Assembly: GCF_050920415.1 (NCBI RefSeq)
Contig: NZ_CP169309.1
DNA from: Escherichia coli
Lineage (GTDB): Bacteria > Pseudomonadota > Gammaproteobacteria > Enterobacterales > Enterobacteriaceae
DNA length: 64,000 nucleotides
Direction: 5' to 3' (one strand)
The notes beneath the pieces are model-generated. The model was not told the DNA's origin. It worked only from the letters and a program-made list of their open reading frames with translations, and searched no databases. Shown piece by piece: positions 24,117 through 61,272 of the stretch (the first letter of the stretch is position 1; each line of letters opens with the position of its first letter). The translations under genes and the position numbers were made by a program.

Positions 24117-25600
<1,484 letters not shown>

Positions 25601-36550: not shown

Positions 36551-36573
36551 ACCATGACTAAAGGAAACGGCTA

Positions 36574-38197: not shown

Positions 38198-38221
38198 CTG
38201 ATAAATAAGGATATAAAAACA

Positions 38222-39196: not shown

Positions 39197-39212
39197 TCCC
39201 GAGGTACGGTCG

Positions 39213-39719: not shown

Positions 39720-39731
39720 CAGGGGCCTGCA

Positions 39732-41222: not shown

Positions 41223-41276
41223 TTGATATCGCTCCCCGACGTTGGGGAGTATGAGACTGATGACAAACGCTAAATT

Positions 41277-41376
41277 GCCTGATGCGCTGCGCTTATCAGG
41301 CCTACCACAGAAATGCAATATATTGAATTTGCATGCTTTTGTAGGCCGGATAAGGCGATCACGCCGCATCCGGCAT
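41277..41376. repeat. RIP-type BIME: two inverted REP units flanking an AT-rich putative IHF-site spacer
   Basis: gcctgatgcgctgcgcttatcaggcctac ... tgcaatatattgaatttgcatg ... taggccggataaggcgatcacgccgcatccggca. Confidence 0.65.
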
Positions 41377-41407
41377 GAACAAAGCACACGTTAACAACAA
41401 TCGGAAT

Positions 41408-41440
41408 GCTCCCCGACGTTGGGGAGCGTTTTTTTATTTC
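41408..41440 (+). terminator. Hairpin plus T-run overlapping the udp 3' end; second copy of a duplicated 19 bp palindrome
   Basis: gctccccgacgttggggag followed by cgtttttttatttc; the identical hairpin also occurs at 41231-41249 just after tctA. Confidence 0.5.
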
Positions 41441-42198
41441 AGCAGACGACGCGCCGCTTCCACCACGATTTTCACCGCATGGCTTTCGGTTTGTTTCATC
41501 GTCTCAGCATTCGGGATCTCTTGCTGGGTACGATTGACGATAACGCCCGCCACCATACCCGCACGCAGGCCCTGGCTTGCACACATGGTCAGCAGGGTTG
41601 CAGATTCCATTTCATAGTTCATTACGCCCATCGCCTGCCACTCTTCCATAGAACCTTTAAAGTGACGGACTACACGACCAGAGTAAGTATCGTAACGTTC
41701 CTGACCTGGGTAGAAGGTATCAGAAGAAGCCGTCACACCAACGTGAGTGGTGGCACCAATTGACTTCGCCGCTTCAACCAGCGCGGTCGTACATTCGAAA
41801 TCTGCGACAGCCGGGAACTCCAGCGGAGCGAAGTGCAGGCTCGCGCCATCCAGACGAACAGACGCCGTGGTCACCAGCACATCACCCACATTAATATGCG
41901 GCTGGATAGCGCCCGTTGTACCGATACGCAGGAAGGTGCGAATGCCCAGCTGTGCCAGCTCTTCAACCGCAATAGAGGTAGACGGGCCGCCGATACCGGT
42001 AGAGCAGACGATAACAGGTTTACCATCCAGCTCTGCACGCCAGGTGGTGAATTCGCGGTGAGATGCCAGCTTAACCGGCTTATCCATCAGCGCGGCGATC
42101 TTTTCCACACGATCCGGGTCGCCAGGGACGATGGCAAGCGTAGCCCCTTGTAAATCGTTTTTAGTGAGGCCGAGATGAAAAACATCATACTTGGACAT
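41434..42198 (-). CDS. udp: Uridine phosphorylase (start at [10 protein letters not shown])
   Basis: About 254 aa PNP/UDP phosphorylase closely matching E. coli Udp. Confidence 0.95.
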
Positions 42199-42271
42199 AT
42201 ACAACTCCTCTGTGAATCGGTTTAGTCAGAAGAAGCAAAAAGACACTTTACCGAAGGGTTTGACATTTTTT

Positions 42272-42340
42272 CGTGACACTCATCACCTTGATGCAAATGC
42301 GTTGCATAAATTTACCCAGCAAAAGTGATGCGAATCACAT
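42272..42340 (-). promoter_or_regulatory. udp promoter region with two CRP-like dyads
   Basis: cgtgacactcatcac and agtgatgcgaatcacat resemble TGTGA-N6-TCACA; the udp promoter is known to be CRP/CytR controlled. Confidence 0.4.
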
Positions 42341-42459
42341 AAATCACTCTTCATTCTGCATGACTGCATAAAAGATGAGCCGATTCAGGCAATGTGATTT
42401 GTTGCATGCTGACTATAGTTAACATTGCGCAACATTTTTATAAGGGTACGGAGAATACC

Positions 42460-43272
42460 ATGGCAACAACACAACAATCTGGATTTGCACCTGCTGCATC
42501 ACCTCTCGCTTCGACCATCGTTCAGACCCCGGATGACGCGATTGTAGCAGGCATCACCTCTATCCCTTCACAAGGGGATAACATGCCTGCTTACCATGCC
42601 AGACCAAAGCAGAGCGATGGCCTACTACCAGTGGTCATTGTAGTGCAGGAAATTTTTGGCGTGCATGAACATATCCGCGATATTTGTCGCCGTCTGGCAC
42701 TGGAGGGGTATCTGGCTATCGCACCTGAACTTTACTTCCGCGAAGGCGATCCGAATGATTTTGCCGATATCCCTACGCTGCTTAGCGGTCTGGTAGCAAA
42801 AGTGCCTGACTCGCAAGTACTGGCCGATCTCGATCATGTCGCCAGTTGGGCGTCACGCAACGGCGGCGATGTTCATCGCTTAATGATCACCGGATTTTGC
42901 TGGGGTGGGCGCATCACCTGGCTGTATGCTGCGCATAACCCGCAACTGAAAGCGGCGGTGGCATGGTACGGCAAACTGACAGGCGATAAGTCGCTGAATT
43001 CACCGAAACAACCTGTTGATATCGCAACCGATCTTAACGCGCCGGTTCTCGGCTTGTATGGTGGTCAGGATAACAGCATTCCGCAGGAGAGCGTTGAAAC
43101 CATGCGCCAGGCGCTGCGGGCTGCTAATGCGAAAGCAGAGATTATCGTCTACCCGGATGCCGGGCATGCATTCAACGCCGATTATCGCCCGAGCTATCAT
43201 GCCGAATCTGCGAAAGATGGCTGGCAGCGAATGCTGGAGTGGTTTAAGCGGTATGGTGGGAAACGGAATTAG
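42460..43272 (+). CDS. dlhH: Dienelactone hydrolase-family protein (start at MATTQQSG)
   Basis: About 270 aa alpha/beta hydrolase with a GFCWGG nucleophile motif; position next to udp as for K-12 ysgA. Confidence 0.85.
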   Translation: MATTQQSGFAPAASPLASTIVQTPDDAIVAGITSIPSQGDNMPAYHARPKQSDGLLPVVIVVQEIFGVHEHIRDICRRLALEGYLAIAPELYFREGDPNDFADIPTLLSGLVAKVPDSQVLADLDHVASWASRNGGDVHRLMITGFCWGGRITWLYAAHNPQLKAAVAWYGKLTGDKSLNSPKQPVDIATDLNAPVLGLYGGQDNSIPQESVETMRQALRAANAKAEIIVYPDAGHAFNADYRPSYHAESAKDGWQRMLEWFKRYGGKRN

Positions 43273-43663
43273 TTTCCTCTTAGTCTATATTTGAGATGGT
43301 GAGTGAACGAATGCGTTTTGCTGCCATCTCTGTCCCCCAAAAAATAATCAGTATGAATTGATTGGAGAGCACGACTCCGCTATTTGACCTTAAGAAAGTC
43401 GGCAAGTCATAGTCATAAATGAGTCTCTTCACTGGCAGACACCTTAAAGATTTACCATCAACTCCCATTCTCAAACAAACATTAATTATTATCAACACAT
43501 TCACATTAATTATAAATTATCTCAGACCTTCCTGATAAAAAGATATTAAAGTGAAACATTTTGTTTTTCACATTTTAGTTCATCCCTATTAGGCGTAAAT
43601 AAAGGTAAAAAATAACAATACTATTTTTCTTTCACAAAAGAATTAACAAAAGGTTTTTCAAGG

Positions 43664-44062
43664 ATGAGTGATATTATTTACCTGACCATAACCGGAGAAC
43701 AACACGGATGTATTTCCTCTCGTTGTGGAACGAGCACATCAATAGGTAATCGCTGGCAGATTGGTCATGAAGATGAAATCTTCGCGTTCTCGCTCTCTAA
43801 TAGTATTACGAATACAGGAAAAGGGTCACATTTGCATGGCCTTAGTTTCTGTAAGTTGATTGACAAAAGCTCCCCGTTACTTATTAACGCTATTAACAAT
43901 AACGAGCAGTTGTTCATGGAGTTTGACTTCTATCGGATCAATAGATTTGGTCGATGGGAGAAATATTACAACATTCAACTCCGCGGCGCGCTCTTATCAG
44001 CAATCAATCACCTGTTTACGGAGAACAATCTGGATACAGAAACCATCACTGTCAGTTATTAA
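43664..44062 (+). CDS. Hcp-like type VI secretion tube protein domain (132 aa, shorter than typical Hcp)
   Basis: IYLTITGEQHGCISSRCGTSTSIGNRWQIGHEDEIFAF, IDKSSPLLINAI, FYRINRFG and ETITVSY follow the Hcp1-family pattern; RBS before the ATG; AT-rich context. Confidence 0.6.
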   Translation: MSDIIYLTITGEQHGCISSRCGTSTSIGNRWQIGHEDEIFAFSLSNSITNTGKGSHLHGLSFCKLIDKSSPLLINAINNNEQLFMEFDFYRINRFGRWEKYYNIQLRGALLSAINHLFTENNLDTETITVSY

Positions 44063-44107
44063 TATATACTCTCCAGGCATCTGATTGCTAATACTGAATT
44101 TAGTTAT

Positions 44108-44812
44108 TTGGCATTTCCCGATAACTACAATCGTCTGTTTATACCACGGCCAAAAACTAAAGATGATAATGGCCTCAAAACACTCAATAGTAAAGCTGTT
44201 GGCAGACTGCTTGCTGCTGGCGGCATATACAATGGGAATATCGAAGGATTCAGGGAAACAGCAAACAAGTTGGGGGGAGATGCACCTGCTGGTTACGATC
44301 AAGTTATGGATAACAAAGGGTTACTCATCGCTGGTGCTTCAATAGTTGCTGGAGCAGTTCTGGGGAGAATGAGACTCCCTGATTTGGAATCACTTGAGCA
44401 TTTCGGAGCCAGAGGAGCAGTATCAGGAAGACCATTTAATCCCGACCTTGCCGGTGGTCCAATAGAAAATCTGACGACAGATGGCGTAACAATCAACAGG
44501 GAAGGTATCGCTATTGTTGAAAAACACATAGCCAGATTTGGTCATGACCCTGTAAATGAAGTGATGATCAATAGACTGAAAGACATTGAGAAAGGAAAAA
44601 TCCCCCCAGAACAAGTAGATCTTAACTTCTATACTCATGAATGTCGGGAATATCAGCGTTACTGTAATCTTGGTTGGGAAACAGGACAACCTGATGGTGA
44701 CGCAGGCTATGCACTCTGGAATCATACGCATACTGCTACTCTAGAAGATTATAAACTTAAGGGAGAACTTAATGACTTATACCACCAGGATGCACTTGAC
44801 TATGATAACTGA
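44108..44812 (+). CDS. Putative toxin/effector domain protein of unknown class
   Basis: 234 codon ORF in the same frame as the Hcp-like ORF, open from the TAA at 44060-44062; no ATG or clear RBS near its 5' end; glycine-zipper-like GLLIAGASIVAGAVLG segment. Confidence 0.4.
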   Translation: MAFPDNYNRLFIPRPKTKDDNGLKTLNSKAVGRLLAAGGIYNGNIEGFRETANKLGGDAPAGYDQVMDNKGLLIAGASIVAGAVLGRMRLPDLESLEHFGARGAVSGRPFNPDLAGGPIENLTTDGVTINREGIAIVEKHIARFGHDPVNEVMINRLKDIEKGKIPPEQVDLNFYTHECREYQRYCNLGWETGQPDGDAGYALWNHTHTATLEDYKLKGELNDLYHQDALDYDN

Positions 44813-45047
44813 AACTGAAATTAACGTACTGAAAGTTATGGCTGAGAAAGATATAAACTGGAACTGGATGAATCTCGATCGCACACTATCTATAAGGCAA
44901 ATTCCAGGATTCGGTAATGTTGTTAACATTGTTAACAAATTAGCTAACGAGGGTTTGGTTATTATTGAGGATAGCGGACATAAGTCTATGCCTCACTACC
45001 ACGTTACTGAAAAGGGATACAATCTCGTGAAAAGTGAGAATAAATAA
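44802..45047 (+). CDS. Small winged-helix-like protein, candidate immunity protein or regulator
   Basis: ATG at 44802 overlaps the upstream stop (ATGATAACTGA); the ~81 aa product has an HTH-like LSIRQIPGFGNVVNIVNKLANEGLV segment. Confidence 0.4.
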   Translation: MITETEINVLKVMAEKDINWNWMNLDRTLSIRQIPGFGNVVNIVNKLANEGLVIIEDSGHKSMPHYHVTEKGYNLVKSENK

Positions 45048-45195
45048 CGTAGCGTTGATTACTGAACAAATCGCTCAGGATTATATTTTGCGAAAAAAAT
45101 GATTCGGTTATTTCTGTGTCTGAACGGCCGCAGATAGCAAAATGGCTTCCGGTGATGGAAGCCATCAGATTATTGGCAAAGTGCGTGTTGTTCAT

Positions 45196-45226
45196 GCCGG
45201 ATGCGGCGTGAACGCCTTATCTGGCC
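45196..45226. repeat. REP element
   Basis: gccggatgcggcgtgaacgccttatctggcc. Confidence 0.7.
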
Positions 45227-45333
45227 AACTAAATCTTGAAAATTCAATAAATTGAATAAATTATGTAGGCCTGGTATCAGGCAGTTTCGCCTCTTTCATC
45301 GTACTGCAATTTACAGTGACTCGTTAATACTCA

Positions 45334-47595
45334 TCATCCCCGACGCAAATTCTGCGCCGCCTGCACCATGTTCGCCAGTGCCGCGCGGGTTTCTGGCCAG
45401 CCGCGCGTTTTCAGGCCACAGTCCGGGTTGACCCACAGACGCTCTGCCGGAATGCGTTGTGCCGCTTTCTTCAGCAGGGACTCAATCCATTCCACGCTCG
45501 GTACGTTTGGCGAGTGAATGTCATAGACGCCAGGACCGATTTCATTCGGATAATCAAACTCTTCAAACGACTCCAGCAACTCCATGTCGGAACGCGAGGT
45601 TTCGATTGTGATGACGTCAGCATCCAGCGCCGCAATCGAATCCATGATGTCGTTGAACTCGCAGTAACACATGTGAGTGTGGATTTGCGTGTCATCTTTC
45701 GCTACGGCAGCGTTGATACGGAAAGCCTCCACGCCCCACTGGAGATAGGCATCCCAGTCGCTGCGACGCAGCGGTAAACCTTCGCGTAGCGCCGGTTCAT
45801 CAATCTGGATGATGCCAATTCCAGCGGCTTCCAGATCGGCCACTTCATCACGAAGCGCCAGCGCAATTTGTTTGGCGATGGTTTCACGGCTGACATCTTC
45901 ACGCGGGAACGACCAGCAGAGAATGGTCACCGGGCCAGTCAGCATCCCTTTCACCGGTTTATCAGTCAGAGATTGCGCATACTTCGCCCACTCCACGGTA
46001 ATCGGTGCCGGGCGGCTAACGTCACCAATAACAATCGGTGGCTTCACGCAGCGGGAACCGTAGCTCTGTACCCAACCGTTTTGCGTAAAGACAAAGCCAT
46101 CCAGGTGCTCGCCAAAGTATTCCACCATGTCATTACGCTCGGCCTCACCATGCACCAGCACATCCAGACCCAGACGTTCCTGCTCAACAATGGCCTGCTT
46201 GATATGTTCTGCAATGCCCGTGCGGTAGTTGTTGGCGTCGAGATTACCCTTTTTGAAATCCAGACGCAGGGTACGGATTTCTGTGGTTTGCGGGAAAGAG
46301 CCAATCGTGGTGGTCGGCCAGGCTGGCAGTTTAAAACGCGCACGCTGGGCTTCAGCACGCACTTCATAAACGTTCGCACGCTGGCTGTCCTGGGCTGTGA
46401 TCGCTGCCAGACGTTTTTCTACCGCCGGATTATGGACGCGGGTTGAGTGACGACGCGCCTGAATCGGAGCGCTCCACTCTGCCAGAGCTGCCGTGTCACC
46501 ACTGTTCAACGCATCGCGCAGCAGCGCCAGTTCATGGCATTTTTGCAGGGCGAAGGCAAACCAGCTTTTCACTTCCGCATCAAGACGCGTTTCCACACTC
46601 AGGTCGATAGGGCTGTGCAGCAATGAGCAGGAAGATGCCACCCACAAATCACGTTTGCCGACAATGTCCTTAATTTGCGCATATTTCTCGGTAAGATCGG
46701 CGCGCCAGACGTTACGACCATTGATAAGACCCGCAGACAGCAGCCAGTCAGAAGGCAGACGCTTGTGCAGTTCAGCAACGTCATCTTTACCATGTACGAG
46801 ATCGACATGCAGCCCCTGAACAGGCAGCGCAGTAATGGTGTCGAGGTTTGGCGTTACGCCTTCAAAATAGGTGGTCAGCAGCAGTTTCACCTGGCCCTGG
46901 AGCGCGTCGTAAGCGGGTTTATAGGCGTCCAGCCACGCCTGCGGCAGTTCCAGTACCAGAGCCGGTTCGTCGATCTGTACCCACTCAATGCCGCGTTTTG
47001 CCAGTTCTGCCAACACTTGCTGATAAACCGGCAGAATGTCGTTTAGCAGGCTCAGGCGATCAAACTGTTCACCTTTCACTTTACCCAGCCACAGGTAGGT
47101 AACCGGCCCCAGCAGCACGGGCTTGACCTTGTGGCCCAGCGCCAGCGCCTCGTCCACTTCCTCCAGCAGTTGCGTCCAGGTCAGTTTGAACTGTTGGCCT
47201 TTAACGAACTCCGGCACCATGTAGTGATAGTTGGTGTTAAACCATTTGGTCATTTCCGCTGCCGCCGCAGGTTCACCAGTCGGTGCACGTCCACGACCAA
47301 TACGGAACAGGGTGTCGATATCTACCGAACCATCTTTGTTCTGGTGACGCGCCGGAACGTTACCCAGCAGCAGGCTGGTGGTCAGGACATGATCGTACCA
47401 GGCAAAATCGCCCACCGGCAGCAGGTCGATACCTGCTTGCTTTTGTTGATCCCAGTGACGGGCACGTAATTCACGCCCAACCGCCAGCAGTTCTTCACGC
47501 GTGGAGTTCCCCGCCCAATAACTCTCTTGCGCTTTTTTCAGCTCGCGACGCAGGCCAACGCGAGGGAAACCGAGGGTGTGATTCAATATTGTCAT
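45334..47595 (-). CDS. metE: Cobalamin-independent methionine synthase
   Basis: 753 aa; N-terminus [29 protein letters not shown] matches MetE. Confidence 0.97.
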
Positions 47596-47747
47596 TTTTC
47601 TTCCTCTAATTATATGTAAATCCTATGGATTTTGAATTTAGGGAAGGCGGCAAGTTTATTCATCCCCGGGAGCTTACTGAAGTAAGTGACCGGGGTGAAG
47701 AAACGCAGCCAACGCACCATAAATTTAAAAGACGAAGGATTTTAGCC

Positions 47748-47770
47748 GTCCAGATGTTTACACATCCATA
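47748..47770. promoter_or_regulatory. Candidate MetJ-box-like repeats in the metE-metR divergent control region
   Basis: cagatgtttacacatcca resembles degenerate tandem AGACGTCT boxes; exact sites uncertain. Confidence 0.3.
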
Positions 47771-47830
47771 ATTGGCGGTTACTGTATATTCCTCAAGCGC
47801 AAATTATTCATGCCGAAGTGAAGGACTTTC

Positions 47831-48784
47831 ATGATCGAAGTAAAACACCTGAAAACGCTACAAGCGTTGCGGAACTGCGGCTCACTCGCAGCCGCTGCGG
47901 CGACGTTGCATCAAACGCAATCCGCCCTGTCTCACCAGTTTAGCGATCTGGAACAACGCCTTGGCTTCCGGCTATTTGTGCGTAAAAGCCAGCCGCTTCG
48001 GTTTACACCGCAGGGAGAAATCCTGTTGCAACTGGCGAATCAGGTGCTGCCGCAAATCAGCCAGGCACTGCAAGCCTGCAATGAACCGCAGCAGACGCGC
48101 CTGCGCATTGCCATTGAGTGCCATAGCTGTATTCAGTGGCTGACGCCCGCGTTAGAAAATTTCCATAAGAACTGGCCGCAGGTGGAGATGGATTTTAAAT
48201 CGGGCGTGACGTTTGACCCGCAGCCCGCGTTGCAGCAGGGTGAGCTGGATCTGGTGATGACCTCCGATATTCTGCCGCGCAGTGGCCTGCATTATTCGCC
48301 GATGTTCGATTATGAAGTGCGTCTGGTGTTAGCGCCTGACCATCCACTGGCGGCGAAAACGCGAATCACGCCGGAAGACCTCGCCAGCGAAACGCTGTTG
48401 ATTTATCCGGTGCAGCGTAGCCGACTGGATGTCTGGCGGCATTTTCTTCAGCCCGCAGGCGTTAGCCCGTCACTGAAAAGCGTCGATAACACCTTGTTGT
48501 TGATTCAGATGGTTGCCGCACGGATGGGCATCGCTGCGCTACCGCACTGGGTGGTGGAGAGTTTTGAACGCCAGGGTCTGGTGGTCACCAAAACCTTGGG
48601 CGAAGGCTTGTGGAGCCGACTGTACGCCGCCGTGCGCGATGGCGAGCAGCGTCAGCCGATTACAGAAGCGTTTATTCGTTCAGCGCGCAATCACGCCTGC
48701 GATCATCTGCCGTTTGTGAAGAGCGCGGAGCGACCCACTTACGATGCACCCACAGTGAGGCCAGGATCACCAGCGCGCCTGTAA
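47831..48784 (+). CDS. metR: LysR-family transcriptional activator MetR
   Basis: 317 aa with an N-terminal LysR HTH; divergent from metE. Confidence 0.95.
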
Positions 48785-49571
48785 TAAACGTTGGCCAGTG
48801 CGGCTGTTGGTGCCAGATAGCCAGGTTAACCAGCAGCCCTGCCGGAACGTGCATATTATTCATAATGCCCAGCGTTCCGGCGTCCACCTGCGTCGCGCCG
48901 TAGTTCCACATAAAGTAGCCAATTCCGGAGGCCACCACGCCAAGAAACACCAGAATGCCCCATTGCAGCGTGGTTTGCGGCATTTTCTGCGCATTTCCCA
49001 GCAAAAACCATGCAATCACTGCCACCAGAAACGCGCCAAGATAGAACCACGCAAAGGCGTTATGCTGTGGCATCGGACGAGTTTCCATCAGGCGTTTGTA
49101 ACCCACCATGCCGATGGCAAAAGTGATATTGGAGAGTTGCACCAGCAGCAGGCCAGTCCAGAAGTGGTCGGTGACCTGATCATAGCGAATAATCCCGGCA
49201 CCAATCACCGCCAACAAGGCGCTAAAAGCATAGCCCCAGCGCAGACGGCGCTTACTCATGATGTCATAAATCAGCGTGATGTAGAGCGGAGTCAGTACGG
49301 TGAACAGCAACAGCTCGGAGACCGTCAGGTAGAGATAGGCGCGAAAACTCAGCATATACATCACGCCAAGCTGCATCGCGCCCACCAGCATATACAGGCC
49401 AACCGTTTTCAGGCTATTGCCACGGGTACGCAGAAACGGCAGAAACACGAGTGCCGCCAGGCCAACGCGCACCAGCACTGCAAAATAGCTATCGACGTGC
49501 CCCGCAAGGTACTCGCCATAAAAGCTAAAGGAGAAGGCCCACAGAATCGTGGTGATGATAAGTAGCGCCAC
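48672..49571 (-). CDS. yigM: DMT/EamA-family transporter YigM (biotin transporter BioP)
   Basis: 299 aa ten-TM EamA-type protein; its 3' end overlaps the metR 3' end. Confidence 0.85.
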
Positions 49572-49646
49572 AATGGAAAACTCTTTGATTAACGAGTATC
49601 CATTGTAGCGAAGTATCAGGTTGACAACTGACCAAATAAAGAACGA

Positions 49647-50447
49647 TTACGATAAATAGAGTTTACGCAGATAATGCGGCACTGCATCCTCGGCGTTAGT
49701 ACCAATCACTTCCAGCTCCGGATGCAGATCTTTCAGACGCTGGTGCGCACTGCCCATAATGCAGCCTTTACCTGCCATCGACAGCATTTCGGCGTCGTTC
49801 ATCCCGTCACCAAAGGCAATACAATCTTTCAGACTGTAGCCCAGTTTCTTCGCCACCGCTTCCAGGGCATGGCCTTTTGAAACGCCGCCCGCCATCACTT
49901 CCAGACAAGTTAGGGTAGAGAAACTGACGTTGACGCGATCGCCCCAACGAGCGTTGATTGCCTGCTCCAGCGGCAGCAGTTGTTCATGAGAATCACAGGT
50001 GAAGAACACTTTGCTGACGCCTTCCGGATCCAGTAATCCTGGCTCATACAGCGCATATTTGAACACCGCTTCTTTAAAAAAGCGCATCTCTTCCGGGCGG
50101 TGGCGATTCATAAACCATTCGTCGTCGCGATAAACGTTAGTAATGATGTCCGGGTTGTCGTTGACCACGCCAAACAGATCGCTGGCAATGTCGCGATCCA
50201 GGTTATGAGCAAAAATCAGATTGCCATCCAGATCGTGAACGCGCGCGCCATTGGAGGTAATCATGTAAGACTTAATCTCCAGATTATCGCGAATTTGCCC
50301 CACATCAACGTGGTGGCGACCGGTCGCAAACACAAAGTTAATGCCGCGCGCGGTGAGCAGCTTCAGAGTTTCTTTGGCGTAAGGGGATAACGTATGGTCG
50401 GGAGAAAGTAACGTGCCATCTAAATCAGACGCAACAACCTGGTACAT
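49647..50447 (-). CDS. yigL: HAD-family Cof-like sugar phosphatase YigL (start at MYQVVASDLDGTLL)
   Basis: DxDGTL HAD motif I; 266 aa. Confidence 0.85.
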   Translation of the reverse strand: MYQVVASDLDGTLLSPDHTLSPYAKETLKLLTARGINFVFATGRHHVDVGQIRDNLEIKSYMITSNGARVHDLDGNLIFAHNLDRDIASDLFGVVNDNPDIITNVYRDDEWFMNRHRPEEMRFFKEAVFKYALYEPGLLDPEGVSKVFFTCDSHEQLLPLEQAINARWGDRVNVSFSTLTCLEVMAGGVSKGHALEAVAKKLGYSLKDCIAFGDGMNDAEMLSMAGKGCIMGSAHQRLKDLHPELEVIGTNAEDAVPHYLRKLYLS

Positions 50448-50454
50448 AAGAAAT

Positions 50455-51477: not shown

Positions 51478-51587
51478 CGGGTAATCTGCCTCTTAAACCA
51501 CGTAAAATCGTTTTTTTAAGCGTGCCTGACACAACGCTTCGACAGTAGCGTATTGTGGCACAAAAATAGACACACCGGGAGTTCATC

Positions 51588-52208: not shown

Positions 52209-52217
52209 AAAATAATG

Positions 52218-52247
52218 TCGGATGCGGCGTAAACGCCTTATCCGACT
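52218..52247. repeat. REP element
   Basis: gtcggatgcggcgtaaacgccttatccgac. Confidence 0.7.
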
Positions 52248-52269
52248 TACTCTGATGACGCGTCTGGCA

Positions 52270-52890: not shown

Positions 52891-52953
52891 ACAATTGACT
52901 CGCGGGGAAATCGTTTACGGAGTCTTCATCCTGGCACTTTTTTATGCTGCTGA

Positions 52954-54783
52954 CTACTCTTCGTCATCGCCATCGACATGCGCACGGATAAGTGCCATAA
53001 ACGGTTTGCCAAAGCGTTCCAGCTTGCGCATCCCAACGCCGTTAACGCTGAGCATTTCGCTGGCGGTGATTGGCATCTGTTCCGCCATCTCAATCAAGGT
53101 CGCGTCGTTAAACACCACATACGGCGGGACATTACTTTCATCAGCAATGGATTTACGCAGTTTGCGTAATTTGGCGAACAGTTTGCGATCGTAATTGCCA
53201 CCGAACGATTTCTGCATCGCTTTCGGTTTGAGCGCCACAATACGCGGCACGGCAAGTTGTAAAGAGGATTCGCCGCGCAACACAGGCCGTGCGGCTTCTG
53301 TCAGTTGTAATGCCGAATGCTGGGCGATATTTTGCGTCACAAGGCCGAGATGAATCAGCTGGCGGATCACGCTGACCCAATGTTCATGGCTTTTATCACG
53401 GCCCATGCCATAGACTTTCAGTTTGTCATGACCATAGTCGCGGATACGCTGATTATTAGCACCGCGAATCACTTCCACCACATAACCCATACCAAAACGC
53501 TGATTCACCCGACCAATGGTGGAAAGGGCAATCTGTGCATCGGTTGAACCATCGTACTGTTTCGGCGGATCGAGGCAGATATCGCAGTTCCCGCACGGCT
53601 CCTGCCGCCCTTCGCCAAAATAGTTCAGCAGCACCAGACGACGGCAAGTTTGTGCTTCGGCAAACGCGCCCATCGCATTGAGTTTATGACGTTCGATATC
53701 CTGCAACTGCCCTTGCGGCTTCTCTTCAAGGCAACGGCGCAACCACGCCATATCCGCTGGATCGTAAAACAGCATCGCTTCCGCGGGCAGGCCATCACGC
53801 CCGGCGCGTCCGGTTTCCTGATAATAGGATTCGATATTGCGCGGAATATCAAAGTGAACCACGAAGCGGACGTTAGGCTTGTTGATGCCCATGCCGAACG
53901 CTACCGTCGCCACCACAATTTGCAGGTCATCGCGCTGGAATTTTTCCTGCACGTCCGCACGGACATCGTTTTCAAGCCCGGCGTGATAAGCCGCTGCGCT
54001 GATACCCTTGCTTTGCAGACGCGCGGCGGTGTCTTCTACTTTCGCACGACTATTACAGTAAATAATCCCCGACTTACCGCGTTGTTCCTGCACGTAGCGC
54101 ATCAACTGATCGAGCGGTTTGAATTTCTCCATCAGCATGTAGCGAATGTTCGGGCGATCAAAACTGCTGATTTGAATCAGCGGATCGTTCAGCCCCAGCA
54201 GGCGCACGATATCCTGCCGCGTGGTGTCGTCGGCGGTGGCGGTTAGCGCCATAAACGGCAGAGTAGGAAAACGCTGACGCAGCTGACCGAGGGCAGCGTA
54301 TTCCGGGCGGAAATCGTGGCCCCATTGGGAGATACAGTGCGCTTCATCAACGGCTAATAACACTGGATTCCAGTGCGCCAGATGCTCAAGGAAGTTATCC
54401 AGCATCAGGCGTTCCGGCGCGATATACAGCAGGCGGATTTGCCCGGTACGGCAGCCTGTCATTACTTCAAGCTGCTGCTCGCGGGTTTGCGTCGAGTTAA
54501 GACACGCCGCCGCCACGCCGTTGGCTTGCAGTTGATCTACCTGATCTTTCATCAGTGAAATCAGTGGTGAAACAACCACGGTAAGGCCGTTTAGCAATAA
54601 GGCAGGAATTTGATAGCAAAGGGATTTTCCGCCACCAGTGGGCATGACGACCAGGCAATCGCGACCGGAAAGTACGGTGTCAATAATCTCTTCCTGCCCG
54701 GGGCGAAACTGTTGGTAGCCAAAGGTTTCTTGTAAAACCTGTTTAGCCCCGGACTCCAGATTCAACACTTCCGCCTGCGCCAC
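52954..54783 (-). CDS. recQ: ATP-dependent DNA helicase RecQ
   Basis: 609 aa; DEAH helicase motifs, zinc-binding region and HRDC C-terminus. Confidence 0.95.
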
Positions 54784-54801
54784 ATTAACCCCGATTGCCT
54801 G

Positions 54802-54832
54802 AAATAAAAACAGGCGCTATTTTCAGCGCCTG
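54802..54832 (-). terminator. Intrinsic terminator downstream of pldA
   Basis: Hairpin caggcgctattttcagcgcctg, followed on the minus strand by TTTTTATTT. Confidence 0.5.
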
Positions 54833-54914
54833 CGCGAGAAACTGCAATGCTTTTAGTCTCTGAGAGGGTAATCCTGGATGCTGGATTCCAGTTTTGCCTT
54901 TCAATCAACTCACA

Positions 54915-55784
54915 TTAGAACAAGTCGTTCAGCATAACCCCCACACCCACACGGGTCTGGTTAAAGTTATAGTCTATGAGCGATTCGCCATAACCGCTGT
55001 AAATCTGGGTATAAAGGCGCACATGCCTGGTGATCGGGTAACTTAAGCCTAACTCCGCACCACCGTAACCGGTGTTCCAGTTGTACTGTCCTTTCGCACT
55101 CAGCACCGCATCACCCAGGTGATAGCCGATTTTAAGCTGGTAGTAACCCATATATTTGGTGATATCTGGGTTATCGTCAGTATTCCCCACCACATACCAC
55201 GGCTTCACCTCTACCAGCCAGTTACCGTTTTCTGCCATCAGACGGGTATAAAGGCGGTTCCAGCTGCGGGAAGTCGGGTCTGAACGCCCGTTAGAGTCGT
55301 GGTTATAACCCATCTCCACATCGCGCAGCGTCCAGCCAGCAAAGCGGTAATCGGTGGCAAAGCCAAGGAACAATTGCGGTTCGTAGTTGGTTTCACGAAA
55401 CGGTGAAGACTCTTCGCTGTTGGACAGTTGCCACCAGGATTTTTGCGTGTAAGAAGCCCCCAACACCGAGTTTGGCCCCAATATTCCGCGCCACAGCGGA
55501 AATGCCAGGCTCAACTGGAATTTCACTTCATCCTTACGCGCATTTTCCGCCCAGTCGTAACTGGCAATCGCTTCTTTATTCAGATCGCTGGTTTGGGTGT
55601 AGATGAGGTAGTTGGTGTCATAAGGATAGAGCGTGAAAGGATTGTCATGCTCCTGCAGCATATTCGCGATAATACTGCCACGCACCGCAGGCGTGTCATG
55701 CACCTCTTTCACCGTTGCCTCTTGCGCATACACTGCCATTGGCAACATAAACACCGGCAACAACCAGCCCTGCAGAGTCCGCAT
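54915..55784 (-). CDS. pldA: Outer membrane phospholipase A
   Basis: 289 aa with signal peptide and beta-barrel OMPLA sequence. Confidence 0.95.
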   Translation of the reverse strand: MRTLQGWLLPVFMLPMAVYAQEATVKEVHDTPAVRGSIIANMLQEHDNPFTLYPYDTNYLIYTQTSDLNKEAIASYDWAENARKDEVKFQLSLAFPLWRGILGPNSVLGASYTQKSWWQLSNSEESSPFRETNYEPQLFLGFATDYRFAGWTLRDVEMGYNHDSNGRSDPTSRSWNRLYTRLMAENGNWLVEVKPWYVVGNTDDNPDITKYMGYYQLKIGYHLGDAVLSAKGQYNWNTGYGGAELGLSYPITRHVRLYTQIYSGYGESLIDYNFNQTRVGVGVMLNDLF

Positions 55785-55948
55785 CGGTCGTGTTCTCCGT
55801 AACGAATTATTGATTAGATGAATATTTTTCTGCGGGCTATTTTACATACTTAACTCCTTTGCCGTTAGTTATCCCTTCCTAAAGTAGAAACCAACAAAAA
55901 AGAAGCATAAAATCAACATTTCATTAACCAATGAAGTGTAAGGATGAT

Positions 55949-56416
55949 ATGTCTGCCGTACTGACCGCTGAACAAGCCCTGAAATTAGTGGGTGAGATGT
56001 TTGTTTATCACATGCCATTTAACCGTGCGTTAGGGATGGAACTGGAGCGTTACGAAAAAGAGTTCGCACAGCTGGCCTTTAAAAATCAGCCAATGATGGT
56101 GGGTAACTGGGCGCAAAGCATTTTGCACGGCGGGGTCATTGCGTCGGCGCTGGATGTCGCCGCAGGTCTGGTGTGCGTGGGAAGTACCTTAACCCGCCAC
56201 GAAACCATCAGTGAAGATGAACTACGCCAGCGGCTATCGCGGATGGGGACCATTGATCTTCGCGTCGATTATCTGCGCCCAGGCAGGGGTGAGCGTTTTA
56301 CTGCTACCAGTAGTCTGTTGCGTGCGGGCAATAAAGTCGCCGTCGCCCGCGTTGAATTACACAATGAAGAACAGCTTTATATAGCCAGTGCCACCGCCAC
56401 CTATATGGTAGGTTGA
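55949..56416 (+). CDS. yigI: Hotdog-fold acyl-CoA thioesterase YigI (start at MSAVLTAEQ)
   Basis: 155 aa PaaI-like thioesterase fold. Confidence 0.8.
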
Positions 56417-56467
56417 TAACGTAAAAGCAGGTAAACTGCTGTTACCAATTAAAAATGAGTATTCCCG

Positions 56468-57358
56468 ATGGATGCAAAACAAACGCGGCAGGGCGTATTA
56501 CTCGCTCTTGCCGCTTATTTTATTTGGGGTATTGCGCCAGCGTACTTCAAGCTGATTTACTACGTGCCCGCCGATGAGATCCTGACGCATCGCGTGATCT
56601 GGTCGTTTTTCTTTATGGTGGTGCTGATGAGCATCTGCCGCCAGTGGTCTTATTTAAAAACGCTAATTCAGACGCCACAGAAAATTTTTATGCTGGCCGT
56701 CTCTGCCGTACTGATTGGCGGCAACTGGCTACTGTTTATCTGGGCGGTGAACAATCACCATATGCTGGAAGCGAGCCTCGGTTATTTTATTAACCCACTG
56801 GTGAACATTGTGCTGGGGATGATTTTCCTCGGCGAGCGATTCCGCCGGATGCAATGGCTGGCGGTGATTCTGGCGATATGTGGTGTATTGGTCCAGCTCT
56901 GGACTTTTGGTTCGCTGCCAATCATCGCGCTGGGGCTGGCGTTTAGTTTTGCCTTCTACGGCCTGGTACGCAAGAAAATTGCCGTTGAAGCGCAAACCGG
57001 CATGTTAATCGAAACCATGTGGCTGCTGCCCGTGGCGGCGATTTACCTGTTTGCTATTGCCGACAGCTCAACCAGCCATATGGGGCAAAACCCGATGTCG
57101 CTTAATTTACTGCTGATCGCCGCCGGTATTGTCACCACCGTTCCACTGTTGTGTTTTACTGCGGCTGCGACACGCCTGCGTCTCTCAACGTTAGGCTTTT
57201 TTCAGTACATTGGCCCGACGCTGATGTTCCTGCTGGCTGTGACGTTTTATGGTGAAAAACCGGGTGCCGATAAGATGGTGACCTTCGCCTTTATTTGGGT
57301 GGCGCTGGCAATTTTTGTGATGGATGCGATTTATACGCAGCGTAGAACGTCCAAATAA
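56468..57358 (+). CDS. rarD: EamA-family transporter RarD
   Basis: 296 aa ten-TM DMT-superfamily protein. Confidence 0.9.
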   Translation: MDAKQTRQGVLLALAAYFIWGIAPAYFKLIYYVPADEILTHRVIWSFFFMVVLMSICRQWSYLKTLIQTPQKIFMLAVSAVLIGGNWLLFIWAVNNHHMLEASLGYFINPLVNIVLGMIFLGERFRRMQWLAVILAICGVLVQLWTFGSLPIIALGLAFSFAFYGLVRKKIAVEAQTGMLIETMWLLPVAAIYLFAIADSSTSHMGQNPMSLNLLLIAAGIVTTVPLLCFTAAATRLRLSTLGFFQYIGPTLMFLLAVTFYGEKPGADKMVTFAFIWVALAIFVMDAIYTQRRTSK

Positions 57359-57668
57359 AAAATAAATATATTCTGAAAAAATATGCCGACTCTTGCATGA
57401 GAGTGGGCATATTGCCATGCTGACAGGAGACTCACATAAGGAAAGGCAGAATTTCCAGACGTCGTTGTATATTTTCATTTGCTTTAATAAATTTCATTTT
57501 TGGTAAATTCAGCATTATGTTATTAGCGATGAGCAAGACCAATCATTAACCAAGTTCTCTTCAGAATGTAATGAAAAATGTGAAGTGCATTTCTTTTTTA
57601 AAATTTTTTTACCCTATTATTTCTTATCAAATTAACATTGCCCTTAATTATAAGAAAGGAGAATATAA

Positions 57669-58517
57669 ATGAACAACATATTAGGCTCATCAATTAATAT
57701 GCCCTGTACACTTTTCGAAACTATTACTTTATTCGATGATTTTTCTGCTGATGATATGCAGTATGGGGATATGGAAGAACAAGATTTTCTCTCACTCGGC
57801 TTAAGCGACATCTCTGCAAAAGTTGATCCTTACCGCCTCATTAAATACCATTTTCCTGGGCCGAATTCTACTTATGGTGCTTTTAGTGTTCCAACTTCTG
57901 GAACAAAAATATCACAAAGTGAATGTATTGATATTTTATTTGCAGAAATGAAAGATCTGGCAAAAATGTTTTCCTTTTTTGGACAATACAAAACACTCAT
58001 CCAGGATCTGATTGATCATTTTAGATATGGAAATGGCAACAGTTTCCATAGCCAGGAATTGAACTTATCTTTTCATGAACGAATAAACAAATATGATTAT
58101 AATAGCCCAATACGTGTAATCAAAGAATGTATCGAAAATGATATTTCTTCAACACCTACGATAGGATACCGGCCTCTTCTCCTACAAAAGATTAAGACCG
58201 AATTACTTTCATCAAGACTAAATAAATTCAATGATTTTAAAGATAATTTTAATGGCCTGGGAATCAGCATTCATGATATCTCAGCTCAAAAAATATCTCT
58301 TTTAAATTTTCAAAAATATCCTATGGGCTGGAGCGCTACCATTCATTTCATAGCACAAGACCACTTTGGTTTGGATGTGACTGATATAAAAAACAAGATT
58401 TACAACAAGTATAGATTTTTTCGCATATGGTTCTTTTTACAACGGCATAAAGACTTTGCTTTCAAACCTTTTTTTACCAATTTTAACACTATCGAAAGAA
58501 TCGAAAATTATCTATGA
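57669..58517 (+). CDS. Hypothetical protein (282 aa), AT-rich accessory gene
   Basis: ORF preceded by AGGAGA RBS; low-GC codon usage unlike neighbours; no family recognised. Confidence 0.45.
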   Translation: MNNILGSSINMPCTLFETITLFDDFSADDMQYGDMEEQDFLSLGLSDISAKVDPYRLIKYHFPGPNSTYGAFSVPTSGTKISQSECIDILFAEMKDLAKMFSFFGQYKTLIQDLIDHFRYGNGNSFHSQELNLSFHERINKYDYNSPIRVIKECIENDISSTPTIGYRPLLLQKIKTELLSSRLNKFNDFKDNFNGLGISIHDISAQKISLLNFQKYPMGWSATIHFIAQDHFGLDVTDIKNKIYNKYRFFRIWFFLQRHKDFAFKPFFTNFNTIERIENYL

Positions 58518-58942
58518 AAAGCAAACTCCAGAAAATTATATTATATTTATTTCTTATATGCTGCATCTATAATTTATGGACATTGCGTCCTGTACAGATT
58601 TTGTATACATACTCTGATGCTGGCAATTCAGTCTTTCTGGTCGTTGATCATCTGCCATGGACTGATAGCGATAAAATAAATTGGTATCTGAAGCATCAGG
58701 ATGAAATTAAAAGTCAAAATCCCCTACCAGAAGGTAGTTGGCATACCTGGTATGTTATTGATATCGGTAATGGCTTCACTGACTATAAAAAATATATCGA
58801 AGGGCTGTATGAAGATCTCTACTGTTTCCCGACGATTAAGAGCAATGATAATTGCATCGTAAAAAACTATTTAATGGTTATTAATGAATATCCTTACCGT
58901 AATACTCATTTTTTATTGCTGATAACAATGAGTATCAACTAA
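58514..58942 (+). CDS. Hypothetical small protein with N-terminal signal-anchor (142 aa)
   Basis: ATG overlaps the upstream stop (ATGA); hydrophobic N-terminus KIILYLFLICCIYNLW. Confidence 0.45.
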   Translation: MKSKLQKIILYLFLICCIYNLWTLRPVQILYTYSDAGNSVFLVVDHLPWTDSDKINWYLKHQDEIKSQNPLPEGSWHTWYVIDIGNGFTDYKKYIEGLYEDLYCFPTIKSNDNCIVKNYLMVINEYPYRNTHFLLLITMSIN

Positions 58943-59045
58943 CCCAGGAAAATAAGATAGAGCGAGTGTTCAACCCGCATGACTTTGAAAAAGACAATTT
59001 TCAGCAATAAGCCGGATAAAGAACAATCTTTACCCGGCATTTATA

Positions 59046-59996
59046 TTACAACCAGTTCTTCCGCTTAAAGTAAAGATACGGTGCCAGGCCCGCGAGGATC
59101 ATAAAGATAATCGCGCCTGGGTAGCCGAAGCTCCACTTCAGTTCCGGCATAAACTCAAAGTTCATCCCGTAGCTGGAAGCGACCAGCGTCGGTGGCAGGA
59201 ACACCACGGATACCACCGAGAAGATTTTAATGATGCGGTTCTGCTCGATATTGATAAAGCCCATCGCCGCCTGCATCAGGAAGTTCACCTTCTGGAACAG
59301 GGATTCGTTATGCGGCAGCAGGGATTCGATATCTCGCAGGATTTCACGCGCCTGCTCCAGTTGCCCACCCGGTAAGCGTGCTTTACGTACCAGGAAGTTG
59401 AGCGCGCGCTGGGTATCCATCAGACACAGGCGAACTTTCCAGCCGATATCTTCCAGTTCCGCCAGCGTGGAGAGCGCCTCGTCGTACTCATCGCCCTGAT
59501 GCCCTTCCATAATCACCCGGCTCAACTGCTCCAGGTCGCTGTAGATATTTTCAATTTCATCTGCCAGCTGTTCGATTTTGGTTTCGAACAGATCCAACAG
59601 CAGCTCGTAGGCGTTACCGTCCACCATTGACTGGCTACGGGCGCGCATACGATACAGACGGAATGCAGGCAGTTCACGCTCACGCAGAGTAAACAGACGA
59701 CCATCACGGATGGTAAATGCCACAGTGGAGTTACCGGCGTGATCTTCCGCATCTTCAAAGAAGAAGAAGGAGTGAATATGCAGGCCGTCATCGTCTTCAA
59801 AGAAACGCGCTGATGCTTCGATGTCTTCCAGTTCCGGGCGTGTTGCCAGGCTCTGGCCAAGTTCAGATTGTACGCGCAGTCGCTCGTCGTCGTCCGGTTC
59901 GACAAGATCAATCCATACTGCATTTACAAGGGGTTGTGACTCTTCGACTTCCAGCCGGGTCAGTCGGTTATTTTCCAGTTGAAATGCGCTCAGCAT
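59046..59996 (-). CDS. corA: Magnesium/cobalt transporter CorA (start at [10 protein letters not shown])
   Basis: 316 aa with YGMNF motif and two C-terminal TM helices. Confidence 0.95.
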
Positions 59997-60365
59997 GACC
60001 GGGACTCCCAATGCTTAAAATATCGGACAGTTCGGTGGGCACACAGAAACAAATTGGGTTTCAGACCATTAAACAGCCTGACTCAGCGCGACGGGAAAAA
60101 TTGAGGTCGCTGACAACCGCTAAGGCTATCAGCAAAAAGGGATAGCCTTAGGAGTTGATCCTGGATGACAGGATAATGAGCCAGTATCTACTGGGTGTGT
60201 CCAAGGCGAATGTCCTCTTAGAGTGATCGTGCGCGCATGTTACGCCAGCAAAATTTTGCCGTCAACACGCAACAGAACACCACAGAACAATAGTTGAACT
60301 TCGCGCTTTTTGGTACTCGTCAAGGTCGCTAACAGGATAAAAAAATCCCACATCCAGGACCTATA

Positions 60366-61130
60366 ATGGCGCATCGGCTACTCATTGGTAAAGGAATGAT
60401 CACCTTGAATCTCAAACGGATTTTTCTCGCCCTCACCTTACTTCCCTTGTTTGCTGTTGCCGCTGATGATTGCGCACTATCAGATCCGACACTGACCATA
60501 CAGGCGTATACCGTTAATCCTCAAACAGAGCGGGTGAAAATGTACTGGCAAAAAGCCAATGGCGAAGCGTGGGAAACGTTACATGCGCTGCTGACGGATA
60601 TTAATAGTCAGGGTCAGGTGCAAATGGCGATGAACGGCAGCATCTATGATGAAAGCTATGCGCCGCTCGGTTTGTACATCGAAAACGGTCAGCAGAAGGT
60701 GGCGTTAAATCTCGCTTCAGGTGAAGGGAATTTCTTTATCCGTCCTGGCGGTGTGTTTTATGTCGCGGGAGATAAAGTCGGCATCGTTCGTCTGGATGCC
60801 TTTAAAACCAGTAAAGAGATTCAGTTCGCGGTGCAGTCAGGGCCAATGTTGATGGAAAACGGCGTCATTAATCCGCGTATTCATCCCAACGTCGCCTCAC
60901 GCAAAATTCGTAACGGTGTTGGGATTAATAAACAAGGGAACGCCGTGTTTTTGTTGAGCCAGCAGGTGACAAATTTTTATGATTTTGCCTGTTATGCCAA
61001 AACGAAACTGAACGTTGAGCAACTGCTTTATCTTGATGGCACGATTTCACATATGTATGTGAAAGGCGGGGCAATCCCGTGGCAACGCTATCCTTTTGTT
61101 ACCATGATTTCCGTCGAGCAGAAAAGTTAA
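60366..61130 (+). CDS. yigE: DUF2233-family periplasmic protein YigE
   Basis: 254 aa with signal peptide; conserved position between corA and uvrD. Confidence 0.8.
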   Translation: MAHRLLIGKGMITLNLKRIFLALTLLPLFAVAADDCALSDPTLTIQAYTVNPQTERVKMYWQKANGEAWETLHALLTDINSQGQVQMAMNGSIYDESYAPLGLYIENGQQKVALNLASGEGNFFIRPGGVFYVAGDKVGIVRLDAFKTSKEIQFAVQSGPMLMENGVINPRIHPNVASRKIRNGVGINKQGNAVFLLSQQVTNFYDFACYAKTKLNVEQLLYLDGTISHMYVKGGAIPWQRYPFVTMISVEQKS

Positions 61131-61165
61131 AACAACCGTTTTGTGTCACTGAATATGGTGCAGAT

Positions 61166-61269
61166 GCCGGATGCGGCGCAAACGCCTTACCCGGCCTACA
61201 TGACATTGCAATTTATTGAATCTACATGATTTTGTAGGCCGGATAAGGTGCGCAGCACCGCATCCGGCA
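61166..61269. repeat. RIP-type BIME: inverted REP pair with putative IHF-site spacer
   Basis: gccggatgcggcgcaaacgccttacccggcctac ... tgcaatttattgaatctacatg ... taggccggataaggtgcgcagcaccgcatccggca. Confidence 0.65.
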
Positions 61270-61272
61270 ACG

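Follow-up and report, generated by a model that had tools for sequence, protein, structure and literature searches.

The enterobacterial repeat reportedly named BIME-1 (Gilson/Bachellier) is said to have the further names RIP (Oppenheim 1993) and RIB (Boccard & Prentki 1993), and REPIN is reportedly the term for a hairpin-forming REP doublet (Bertels & Rainey 2011). According to published work on the family, a REP-associated Y1 transposase (RAYT, or TnpA_REP) probably spreads the copies; such work also describes REPs in 3' UTRs as RNA hairpins that stabilise the upstream mRNA or attenuate transcription. BIME-1 combines a y REP with a z1 REP, in single copy, around a long and conserved L linker that often contains an IHF site (PMC3333891, in agreement with PMC2817692); for the IHF site of the L linker, both sources cite Boccard & Prentki 1993, and the statement concerns the family, not the copies considered here. 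A size of ~140 bp and presence/absence polymorphism have been reported for the family (PMC1187871), and REPs were described as being without MITE signatures in a 2011 review (PMC3184786). BIME-2 and atypical BIMEs use the same REP types as building blocks; they are characterized, however, by tandem y and z2 arrays with short S linkers, by the lack of an L linker, and by reported gyrase binding.

We analysed a window of 64,000 nucleotides of the Escherichia coli chromosome, in which two REP pairs were observed, at 41276-41375 (element 1) and 61165-61269 (element 2). We are highly confident that both are copies of the BIME-1 repeat (RIP or RIB; equivalent to REPIN), a non-coding unit, ~100-155 bp long, in which a conserved L linker of 34-35 nt is enclosed by two REP hairpins of opposite orientation. 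Family membership by sequence, architecture and genomic position were established for both elements, and the y/z REP and L consensus, which was looked for as a check on membership, was present. The repeat family was described in 1991-1993, and its re-identification is as such ordinary, adding nothing beyond annotation of this strain.

REP pairs at the tctA-udp and yigE-uvrD junctions

Element 1 is located between a tctA-type permease gene (+ strand, stop codon at 41220-41222) and udp (- strand, stop codon at 41434-41436), and element 2 between yigE (+ strand, stop codon at 61128-61130) and uvrD (- strand, stop codon at 61273-61275). Both are intergenic and lie between convergent genes, in line with the 3'-end location given in an earlier sequence-only reading of this DNA, whose coordinates for the two elements proved correct to within 1 nt. 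The inverted REP pairs around a spacer that it reported were found at both sites, with linkers of 34-35 nt, and an inverted-repeat search showed that the REP arms of both elements pair across the linker at 84-94% complementarity. In element 1, the GTAG/CTAC ends face the linker (...GGCCTAC, linker, GTAGGCC...; 41299-41347), and the same arrangement was observed in element 2 (61193-61240). The spacers had been called near-identical; indeed, the two 22-mers quoted (41314-41335 and 61207-61228) are identical at 19 of the 22 positions. A degenerate pattern for both 22-mers, with up to three mismatches, matched three times in the window, versus 0.00 matches expected from 100 shuffles; the third match, absent from the earlier reading, corresponds to an additional, decayed copy. 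Only one unit per locus was present at both elements, with no tandem array; neither is of the BIME-2 or atypical BIME type.

By its sequence, element 1 is a canonical full-length copy, with a y REP, an L linker, a z1 REP and conserved flanks. It comprises, from left to right, a conserved left flank (GAGACTGATGACAAACGCTAAAT; 41253-41275, + strand), which agrees with the family consensus GAGACTGATGACAAACGCAAAAT and, as read from the sequence, forms an imperfect inverted repeat with the right flank; a y-type REP (TGCCTGATGCGCTGCGCTTATCAGGCCTAC; 41276-41305, + strand), with one mismatch to the family consensus TGCCTGATGCGCTACGCTTATCAGGCCTAC; an L linker of 35 nt (41306-41340, + strand), which holds the 22-mer and, on the - strand, an IHF-like core (ATTCAATATATTG; 41316-41328); a z1-type REP (GTAGGCCGGATAAGGCGATCACGCCGCATCCGGCA; 41341-41375, - strand), inverted relative to the y REP, with one mismatch to the family consensus GTAGGCCGGATAAGGCGTTCACGCCGCATCCGGCA and labelled z1 according to that consensus, z1 and z2 not being rigorously separable here; and a conserved right flank (TGAACAAAGCACACGTTAACAACAATCGGA; 41376-41405, + strand), which aligns to the family consensus TGAACAAAGCGCACTTTGTCAGCAATCTGA. 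The boundaries first given for element 1 thus hold for the REP-linker-REP portion; the full repeat unit is wider, from ~41253 to 41405. All features compared are shared with BIME-1: the inverted y and z1 REPs, the long L linker with an IHF-type core, the single unit, the extragenic location at the 3' ends of transcription units, and a size of ~140-155 bp with flanks.

The tctA-udp junction, as found in the window, was present in only 17 of the 5426 complete E. coli genomes; element 1 is part of a tctCBA/dgo-like island. All E. coli genomes matching the junction carry element 1, and no copy-free site was found among them. A relative with an 87% identical TctA was considered as a copy-free site and rejected as not clean: its 66-bp tctA-udp gap contains two unrelated hairpins and no element.

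Element 2, judged by its REP types and flanks, appears atypical, differing from the canonical y-L-z1 arrangement. Its left REP (TGCCGGATGCGGCGCAAACGCCTTACCCGGCCTAC; 61165-61199, + strand; GCCGGAT...ACCCGGCCTAC) is z-like and occupies the place of the y REP. Its 34-nt L linker (61200-61233, + strand) has three substitutions and holds the 22-mer as well as an IHF-like core on the - strand (ATTCAATAAATTG; 61209-61221). Its right REP (61234-61269, - strand) extends to within 3 nt of the uvrD stop codon, which accounts for the lack of the conserved right-flank motif. Escherichia coli K-12 has an ortholog of element 2; no REP or RIP features are annotated in the K-12 RefSeq record between 3997000 and 4020000, and the ortholog, at 4000146-4000291 of NC_000913.3, was therefore established by alignment.

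Two further copies in the window had been missed in the earlier reading. A third, decayed copy (45165-45283, - strand) adjoins the metE stop codon and consists of a truncated y REP, a linker (TTCAATTTATTGAATTTTCAAG), a degenerate z REP and the right-flank motif, followed by a hairpin at 45144-45163. A fourth, strongly decayed copy (1784-1864, - strand), in the yihA-polA gap, retains a y REP, a linker remnant (ATTCAATAGATTA) and a truncated z REP. An example of a BIME-2 or atypical BIME was also observed in the same window, at ~25444-25598.

Linker conservation and the putative IHF site

To sample the family, one genome per species was scanned with the pattern TATTGAATN{10,14}GTAGGCCGGAT, which gave at least 120 loci. 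This sample is biased, since the pattern itself fixed one half of the linker and required the z REP to be intact. With a relaxed y-N-z pattern, both strands of each element gave a match, so that no independent linker sample was obtained. Nearly all loci, among the matches listed, belonged to Escherichia, Pseudocitrobacter, Citrobacter and Klebsiella indica. The family consensus built from these listed matches is close to element 1 nearly base for base, flanks included. The linker consensus (AAGGTTTCTGCAATATATTGAATTTGCACGATTTT) equals the spacer of element 1, and the linkers of both elements match it. Among the matches listed, the left REP was y-type in ~98 of 121 copies and z-like, as in element 2, in only 4 of ~121; the linker measured 34-35 nt in 105 of 113 copies (35 nt, n = 83; 34 nt, n = 22); and the exact 13-mer of element 1 was found in 70 of ~120 copies and that of element 2 in 11 of ~120, these two cores being the commonest core variants. 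In the family alignment of the same matches, the AT-rich linker core was the best-conserved part outside the REPs. Tandem family copies exist at other loci (L008, L027, L042 and L101).

The sequence-only reading had assigned both elements to RIP-type BIMEs with a REP/IHF-site/REP architecture. The family assignment stands through the REPs and the L linker, with element 2 as an atypical member, and the IHF part is carried by homology. The linker core is of the ATTCAAT(A/T)ATTG type and differs by one mismatch from the IHF consensus WATCAANNNNTTR, at specified position 2 in both elements; the same mismatch is found in the family consensus. Scoring the spacers against the IHF consensus thus yielded no exact match and one single-mismatch site each (ATTCAATATATTG and ATTCAATAAATTG, both on the - strand), which is at chance level in the window: 62 one-mismatch sites were counted, versus 55.5 expected, so that the consensus scan has no discriminating power and speaks neither for nor against a site. 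The IHF site in both linkers is therefore described as putative, by homology with the family, in which, according to published family work, IHF would bind the L linker. No REP or BIME analysis was found in papers reporting IHF ChIP-seq, GeF-seq or ChIP-exo data.

Hairpins flanking full-length copies

Element 1 lies between the two copies of a 19-bp direct repeat that consists of a terminator hairpin. The left copy of this terminator-type hairpin (GCTCCCCGACGTTGGGGAG; 41231-41249, + strand) is an exact 19-nt repeat of the right copy (41408-41426, + strand) and is not followed by a T-run. The right copy is followed by a T-run (CGTTTTTTTATTT) and forms part of a terminator-like site at 41403-41432 on the + strand, next to the udp stop codon. 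In E. albertii, the ortholog of element 1 has diverged hairpin copies. The same kind of locus-specific hairpin duplication, defined as exceeding the 99th percentile of a permuted-flank null, was observed in 21 of the 45 full-length family copies. The duplicated repeats lie directly against both junctions, have folding energies of -9 to -16 kcal/mol, and are followed by a T-run only at the right copy. At metE-ysgA, yacH-lpdA and glmS-pstS, the copy-free allele has one hairpin and the element-bearing allele two.

These flanking repeats look like hairpin-sized target duplications. From these data, full-length copies would arrive beside intrinsic-terminator hairpins and duplicate the whole hairpin, with the terminator surviving distally, and element 1 (41231-41426) would be such a copy. 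The target duplication would be defined by structure and variable in length (~16-30 bp), with the T-run lost from the left copy and the right copy remaining a working terminator, and the insertion mechanism would recognise a DNA structure (cruciform or single-strand hairpin) and not a sequence. We infer the direction of the event: it could be an insertion with duplication, or a deletion between repeats that were already there. At glmS-pstS, each of the two hairpin copies corresponds to a different copy-free allele, so that simple duplication is no explanation for that locus. Taken jointly, the propositions that BIME-1 inserts at the base of a terminator hairpin and duplicates it entirely, that this is a true insertion signature, and that it is undescribed seem to us rather doubtful. 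No description of target or terminator duplication at BIME or REPIN elements was found in a literature search that lay outside the 1990s BIME, RIP and RIB papers, and the duplication around element 1 is absent from the published definition of BIME-1 as found in the literature covered.

Like REPINs, both elements have two inverted REPs that fold with their spacer into one long single-strand hairpin; the repeat is non-coding, polymorphic for presence/absence, and variable in copy number among species. For element 1 and its flanks, folded as single-strand DNA, the minimum free energy was -50.7 kcal/mol (z about -6.9 versus shuffles). REPIN and IS200/IS605-type Y1 transposition are, however, described without target duplication in the papers covered, whereas the full-length copies studied have a duplicated hairpin at their flanks. 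The annotation of the window's first 50 kb includes no RAYT (TnpA_REP) gene. The full-length unit also resembles MITEs in its size (<200 bp), its flanking direct repeats and its imperfect terminal inverted repeats (in the family consensus, TGAGACTGATGACAAA agrees with the reverse-complemented right end at 13 of 16 positions). MITE target duplications, in contrast, are short and of fixed length, and the flanking repeat observed here is variable (~13-30 bp) and coincides with a whole hairpin.

Function and significance of the repeats

At 22 nt, the spacers are short; they are also AT-rich and of low complexity, and differ at three of the 22 positions; a likeness arising by chance, or from a generic AT-rich spacer between GC-rich palindromes with no family beyond the REPs, was thus considered. 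It is almost certainly wrong: no match was expected in the shuffled windows, and more than 100 copies from several genera share this linker, with its length and its register to the REPs preserved, a family alignment that rules out the chance reading. Given membership in BIME-1, IHF may be irrelevant, and what counts may be an RNA-level role in the udp/tctA and uvrD/yigE 3' UTRs, through protection from 3' exonucleases, attenuation of read-through between the convergent genes, or slowed termination of uvrD translation. We regard this as a possibility worth keeping, below even odds. Both elements lie between convergent genes, no intrinsic terminator was found near element 2, and the uvrD-sense RNA of element 2 (61131-61290) folds into one very stable, long hairpin (-76.1 kcal/mol, z = -6.6). 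Moreover, a REP less than 16 nt from a stop codon is reported to lower translation (PMC12306157, citing its reference 17), and uvrD translation would be lowered in this way, since the REP of element 2 starts 3 nt after the stop codon. Genomes without element 2 keep a 32-nt REP-like hairpin at the same place, where a compensatory G/C change preserves the pairing. No Rfam family reached threshold between 40000 and 64000, which leaves the RNA role without independent support, and a role as RNA hairpin alone would leave the conservation of the AT-rich linker core unexplained.

The repeats may also be purely selfish or neutral mobile DNA, similar to MITEs or REPINs, without a host function, the linker being kept by recent spread or by a need of the mobilising enzyme. 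About 45% of E. coli genomes lack element 2 and have at this site an alternative allele with an extra SAM-hydrolase-family gene and the small REP-like hairpin; copy-free alleles exist at three other loci; decayed copies lie in the same window; and the unit is bounded by inverted flanks at its ends and by a duplication outside them. Element 1, however, has been kept by E. coli as well as E. albertii, the older hairpin pairs (L009 and L029) have diverged yet both copies are still hairpins, which suggests selection on the surroundings, and the family literature reports IHF binding. We find the absence of any host function rather unlikely. For the BIME-1 copies described here, an RNA-level role and an IHF role are not mutually exclusive.

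Located 3 nt past the uvrD stop codon, the REP hairpin of element 2 has the geometry reported to reduce translation, and ~45% of E. coli genomes have a different allele at this position. If the hairpin duplication is true, structure-guided insertion would explain why BIME-1 repeats are found at the 3' ends of genes, and the duplication would account for the terminator association of BIME-1 copies. If it is also undescribed, it would provide a concrete, testable signature of insertion for elements whose way of moving in E. coli has so far been inferred.

Genomic setting and family membership of the two elements

By megablast, both regions belong to the E. coli chromosome. The best match was strain MFDS1022581 (NZ_CP169399.1; 100% identity for both 701-bp queries), whose annotated genes run in the order yihI ... 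rrn operon ... fadBA ... ubiD ... tatABCD ... ubiE-rmuC, island, udp, ysgA, metE ... uvrD. Element 1, a REP-linker-REP unit, consisted of a left REP (TGCCTGATGCGCTGCGCTTATCAGGCCTAC; 41276-41305), a 35-nt linker (41306-41340) and a right REP (GTAGGCCGGATAAGGCGATCACGCCGCATCCGGCA; 41341-41375). Element 2, of the same build, comprised TGCCGGATGCGGCGCAAACGCCTTACCCGGCCTAC (61165-61199), a 34-nt linker (61200-61233) and GTAGGCCGGATAAGGTGCGCAGCACCGCATCCGGCA (61234-61269). The sequence-only reading had taken both for inverted REP pairs with near-identical spacers at the 3' ends of convergent or terminal genes, and this description was borne out. An inverted-repeat search found arms 84-94% complementary across the linker; the two quoted 22-mers had 19/22 positions in common, and a degenerate pattern covering both (at most three mismatches) matched three times in the window versus 0.00 expected. 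Both neighbouring pairs were convergent: a tctA-type permease gene (+, end 41222) and udp (-, stop 41434-41436) for element 1, yigE (+, end 61130) and uvrD (-, stop 61273-61275) for element 2.

The island between rmuC and udp (35783-41222) encoded an IclR-type regulator, a dgoK-like kinase, a dgoA-like aldolase, tctC, tctB and tctA. No more than 17 of 5426 genomes matched its tctA-udp junction, which reaches the udp stop codon, at a query coverage of 80% or higher. In many E. coli, tctA is a truncated variant (415 aa), and the udp product had 254 aa in the window (ending RRLLK) versus 253 aa in K-12. Between 41700 and 60900 the window was 1335 bp shorter than NZ_CP169399.1, which fits an IS2 copy annotated in that record (44312-45539 of the compared region) and absent from the window at about 44300; small indels were seen upstream of 41000. 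A pseudogene of an IS621 (IS110-family) transposase, which the matching record annotates at 24274-25253, has one REP (24117-24150) on one side and a BIME-2-like cluster of tandem REPs (25444-25598) on the other. REP sequences have been reported as the target of IS621.

BIME-1 (RIP or RIB) is defined as a single-copy unit of y and z1 REPs in inverse orientation around a long, well-conserved linker L, frequently with an IHF site (PMC3333891; also PMC2817692); it measures ~140 bp and its presence or absence varies among isolates (PMC1187871). Scanning one genome per species with the pattern TATTGAATN{10,14}GTAGGCCGGAT yielded at least 120 loci. The matches listed were nearly all in Escherichia (coli, albertii, whittamii, sp. 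E1V33), Pseudocitrobacter, one Citrobacter MAG and Klebsiella indica, with a few single matches in unrelated MAGs. A typical E. coli-type RIP element was also found on two very short contigs of non-enteric assemblies, L062 (262 bp, Desulfosporosinus sp. OT) and L093 (261 bp, Methylobacterium frigidaeris), which are probably contamination.

The five-block consensus of 116 copies among the matches listed was GAGACTGATGACAAACGCAAAAT, TGCCTGATGCGCTACGCTTATCAGGCCTAC, AAGGTTTCTGCAATATATTGAATTTGCACGATTTT, GTAGGCCGGATAAGGCGTTCACGCCGCATCCGGCA and TGAACAAAGCGCACTTTGTCAGCAATCTGA. Element 1 agreed with all five blocks, and its true extent is therefore ~41253-41405. Among the matches listed, about 98 of 121 copies had a y-type left REP and 4, element 2 being one of them, had a z-type one; the linker measured 34-35 nt in 105 of 113. 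Element 2 lacks the right-flank block because the uvrD stop codon is only 3 nt past the REP; its K-12 MG1655 ortholog, between uvrD and yigE, had a decayed right REP. Judged by sequence comparison, element 1 is a canonical and element 2 an atypical BIME-1 member. The sequence-only reading was correct and ordinary, describing two members of an already known repeat family. BIME-1 is usually described as single-copy; tandem RIP-type units (2-4 copies) were observed at four loci (L008, L027, L042 and L101).

IHF site, folding and 3'-end position

An IHF site had also been claimed for the spacers. Neither linker matched the consensus WATCAANNNNTTR exactly; the cores on the minus strand, ATTCAATATATTG and ATTCAATAAATTG, each had one mismatch, at position 2, and the three differences between the 22-mers fell at N positions or beyond the core. 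One-mismatch sites numbered 62 in the window versus 55.5 expected, so consensus scoring has no power to decide either way. Among the matches listed, the 13-mers of element 1 (70 copies) and element 2 (11) were the two commonest variants in a search whose pattern forced part of the core. IHF binding is reported for the BIME-1 family in PMC3333891 and PMC2817692. Since both elements are homologous to this family, they inherit its label, and their IHF sites are considered putative.

Either strand folded as a single long hairpin whose stability was far above that of shuffled sequences (element 1 with flanks as DNA, -50.7 kcal/mol, z = -6.9; uvrD-sense RNA of element 2, -76.1 kcal/mol, z = -6.6). 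The right edge of element 1 carried a terminator-like site; a search for an intrinsic terminator near element 2 found none. In the literature, REPs are described as stabilising the mRNA upstream of them, attenuating transcription and binding IHF, Pol I and gyrase (PMC3333891), and those less than 16 nt from a stop codon as reducing translation (PMC12306157). The uvrD gene has that geometry, with the element 2 REP 3 nt from its stop codon. Both elements would be 3'-UTR structures between convergent genes as well as IHF bending sites, and may have arrived by spread dependent on a REP-associated transposase.

The element 2 locus and decayed copies

Of 5425 E. coli genomes, only 3011 matched the element 2 locus over its full length, and about 45% of complete genomes were without element 2 (window locus 61131-61275). 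These carried a SAM hydrolase / SAM-dependent halogenase family gene between yigE and uvrD, and the position of the element was taken by a REP-like hairpin of 32 nt, TGCCGGATGCGGTGTAGCGCACCGCATCCGGCA, next to the uvrD stop codon (2420-2530 and 2450-2550 in two such loci, L132 and L133, respectively). Strain C4 had a compensatory G/C variant of this hairpin (TGCGGGATG...CATCCCGCA). The arms of this hairpin are identical to the outer arms of element 2, a possible reason for the unusual z-like left REP of the element.

Two further copies, missing from the sequence-only reading, were found in the window. The third (45165-45283, -) adjoins the metE stop codon. In this decayed copy the y REP is truncated and the z REP degenerate; the linker reads TTCAATTTATTGAATTTTCAAG, and the right-flank block is present, with a hairpin, GGCTTCCATCACCGGAAGCC (45144-45163), beyond it. 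At this site the K-12 metE-ysgA gap is only 40 bp. The fourth (1784-1864, -), strongly decayed and located in the yihA-polA gap, retained a y REP, the linker remnant ATTCAATAGATTA and a truncated z REP.

Terminator hairpins around full-length copies

Two copies of GCTCCCCGACGTTGGGGAG, at 41231-41249 and 41408-41426, bracketed element 1 exactly, with a T-run after the right copy only. To assess generality, we took 45 family copies with both flank blocks and scored the 40 nt beyond one end against the 40 nt beyond the other, using left and right flanks permuted between loci as the null. Observed scores reached 27, and 21 of the 45 exceeded the 99th percentile of the null (8; mean 5.1, maximum 16). 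In most high-scoring loci, the repeat abutted both junctions and was a GC-rich hairpin that differed from locus to locus (-9 to -16 kcal/mol), with an A-run before the left copy and a T-run after the right one. Loci with a bracketing hairpin repeat were L009, L020, L029, L033, L038, L040, L048, L052, L054-L056, L060, L061, L081, L083, L101 and L118. In older pairs (L009, L029), the sequences had diverged and both copies still folded.

Relatives searched for element 1 itself gave no clean copy-free site. Three orthologous loci were compared, and each had one hairpin without the element and two with it. At metE-ysgA, K-12 has CCGGGTGGTAATACCACCCGG and a T-run, and E. albertii has hairpin-element-hairpin; at yacH-lpdA, a single hairpin was present in ECOR29 and BL21 and two surrounded the element in E69; at glmS-pstS, two E. 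coli strains had one and E. albertii two. In the latter (L009), the left hairpin matched the E. coli NT1W22 allele (loop GTAA), and the right hairpin with its downstream flank matched the E. coli EC1515 allele (loop TTTC). Simple duplication does not account for two different E. coli alleles in one pair, and these sequences suggest that the allele with the element combines two lineages. Tandem element-hairpin-element-hairpin arrays also exist, with the same hairpin after each copy at L101, as expected from unequal exchange between copies.

One review describes REPs as being without MITE signatures (PMC3184786). We found no mention of a flanking hairpin duplication in the BIME/REPIN literature surveyed, the 1990s primary papers lying outside that survey. 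The duplication of a terminator hairpin around full-length copies is the sole part of this analysis that may merit more work.
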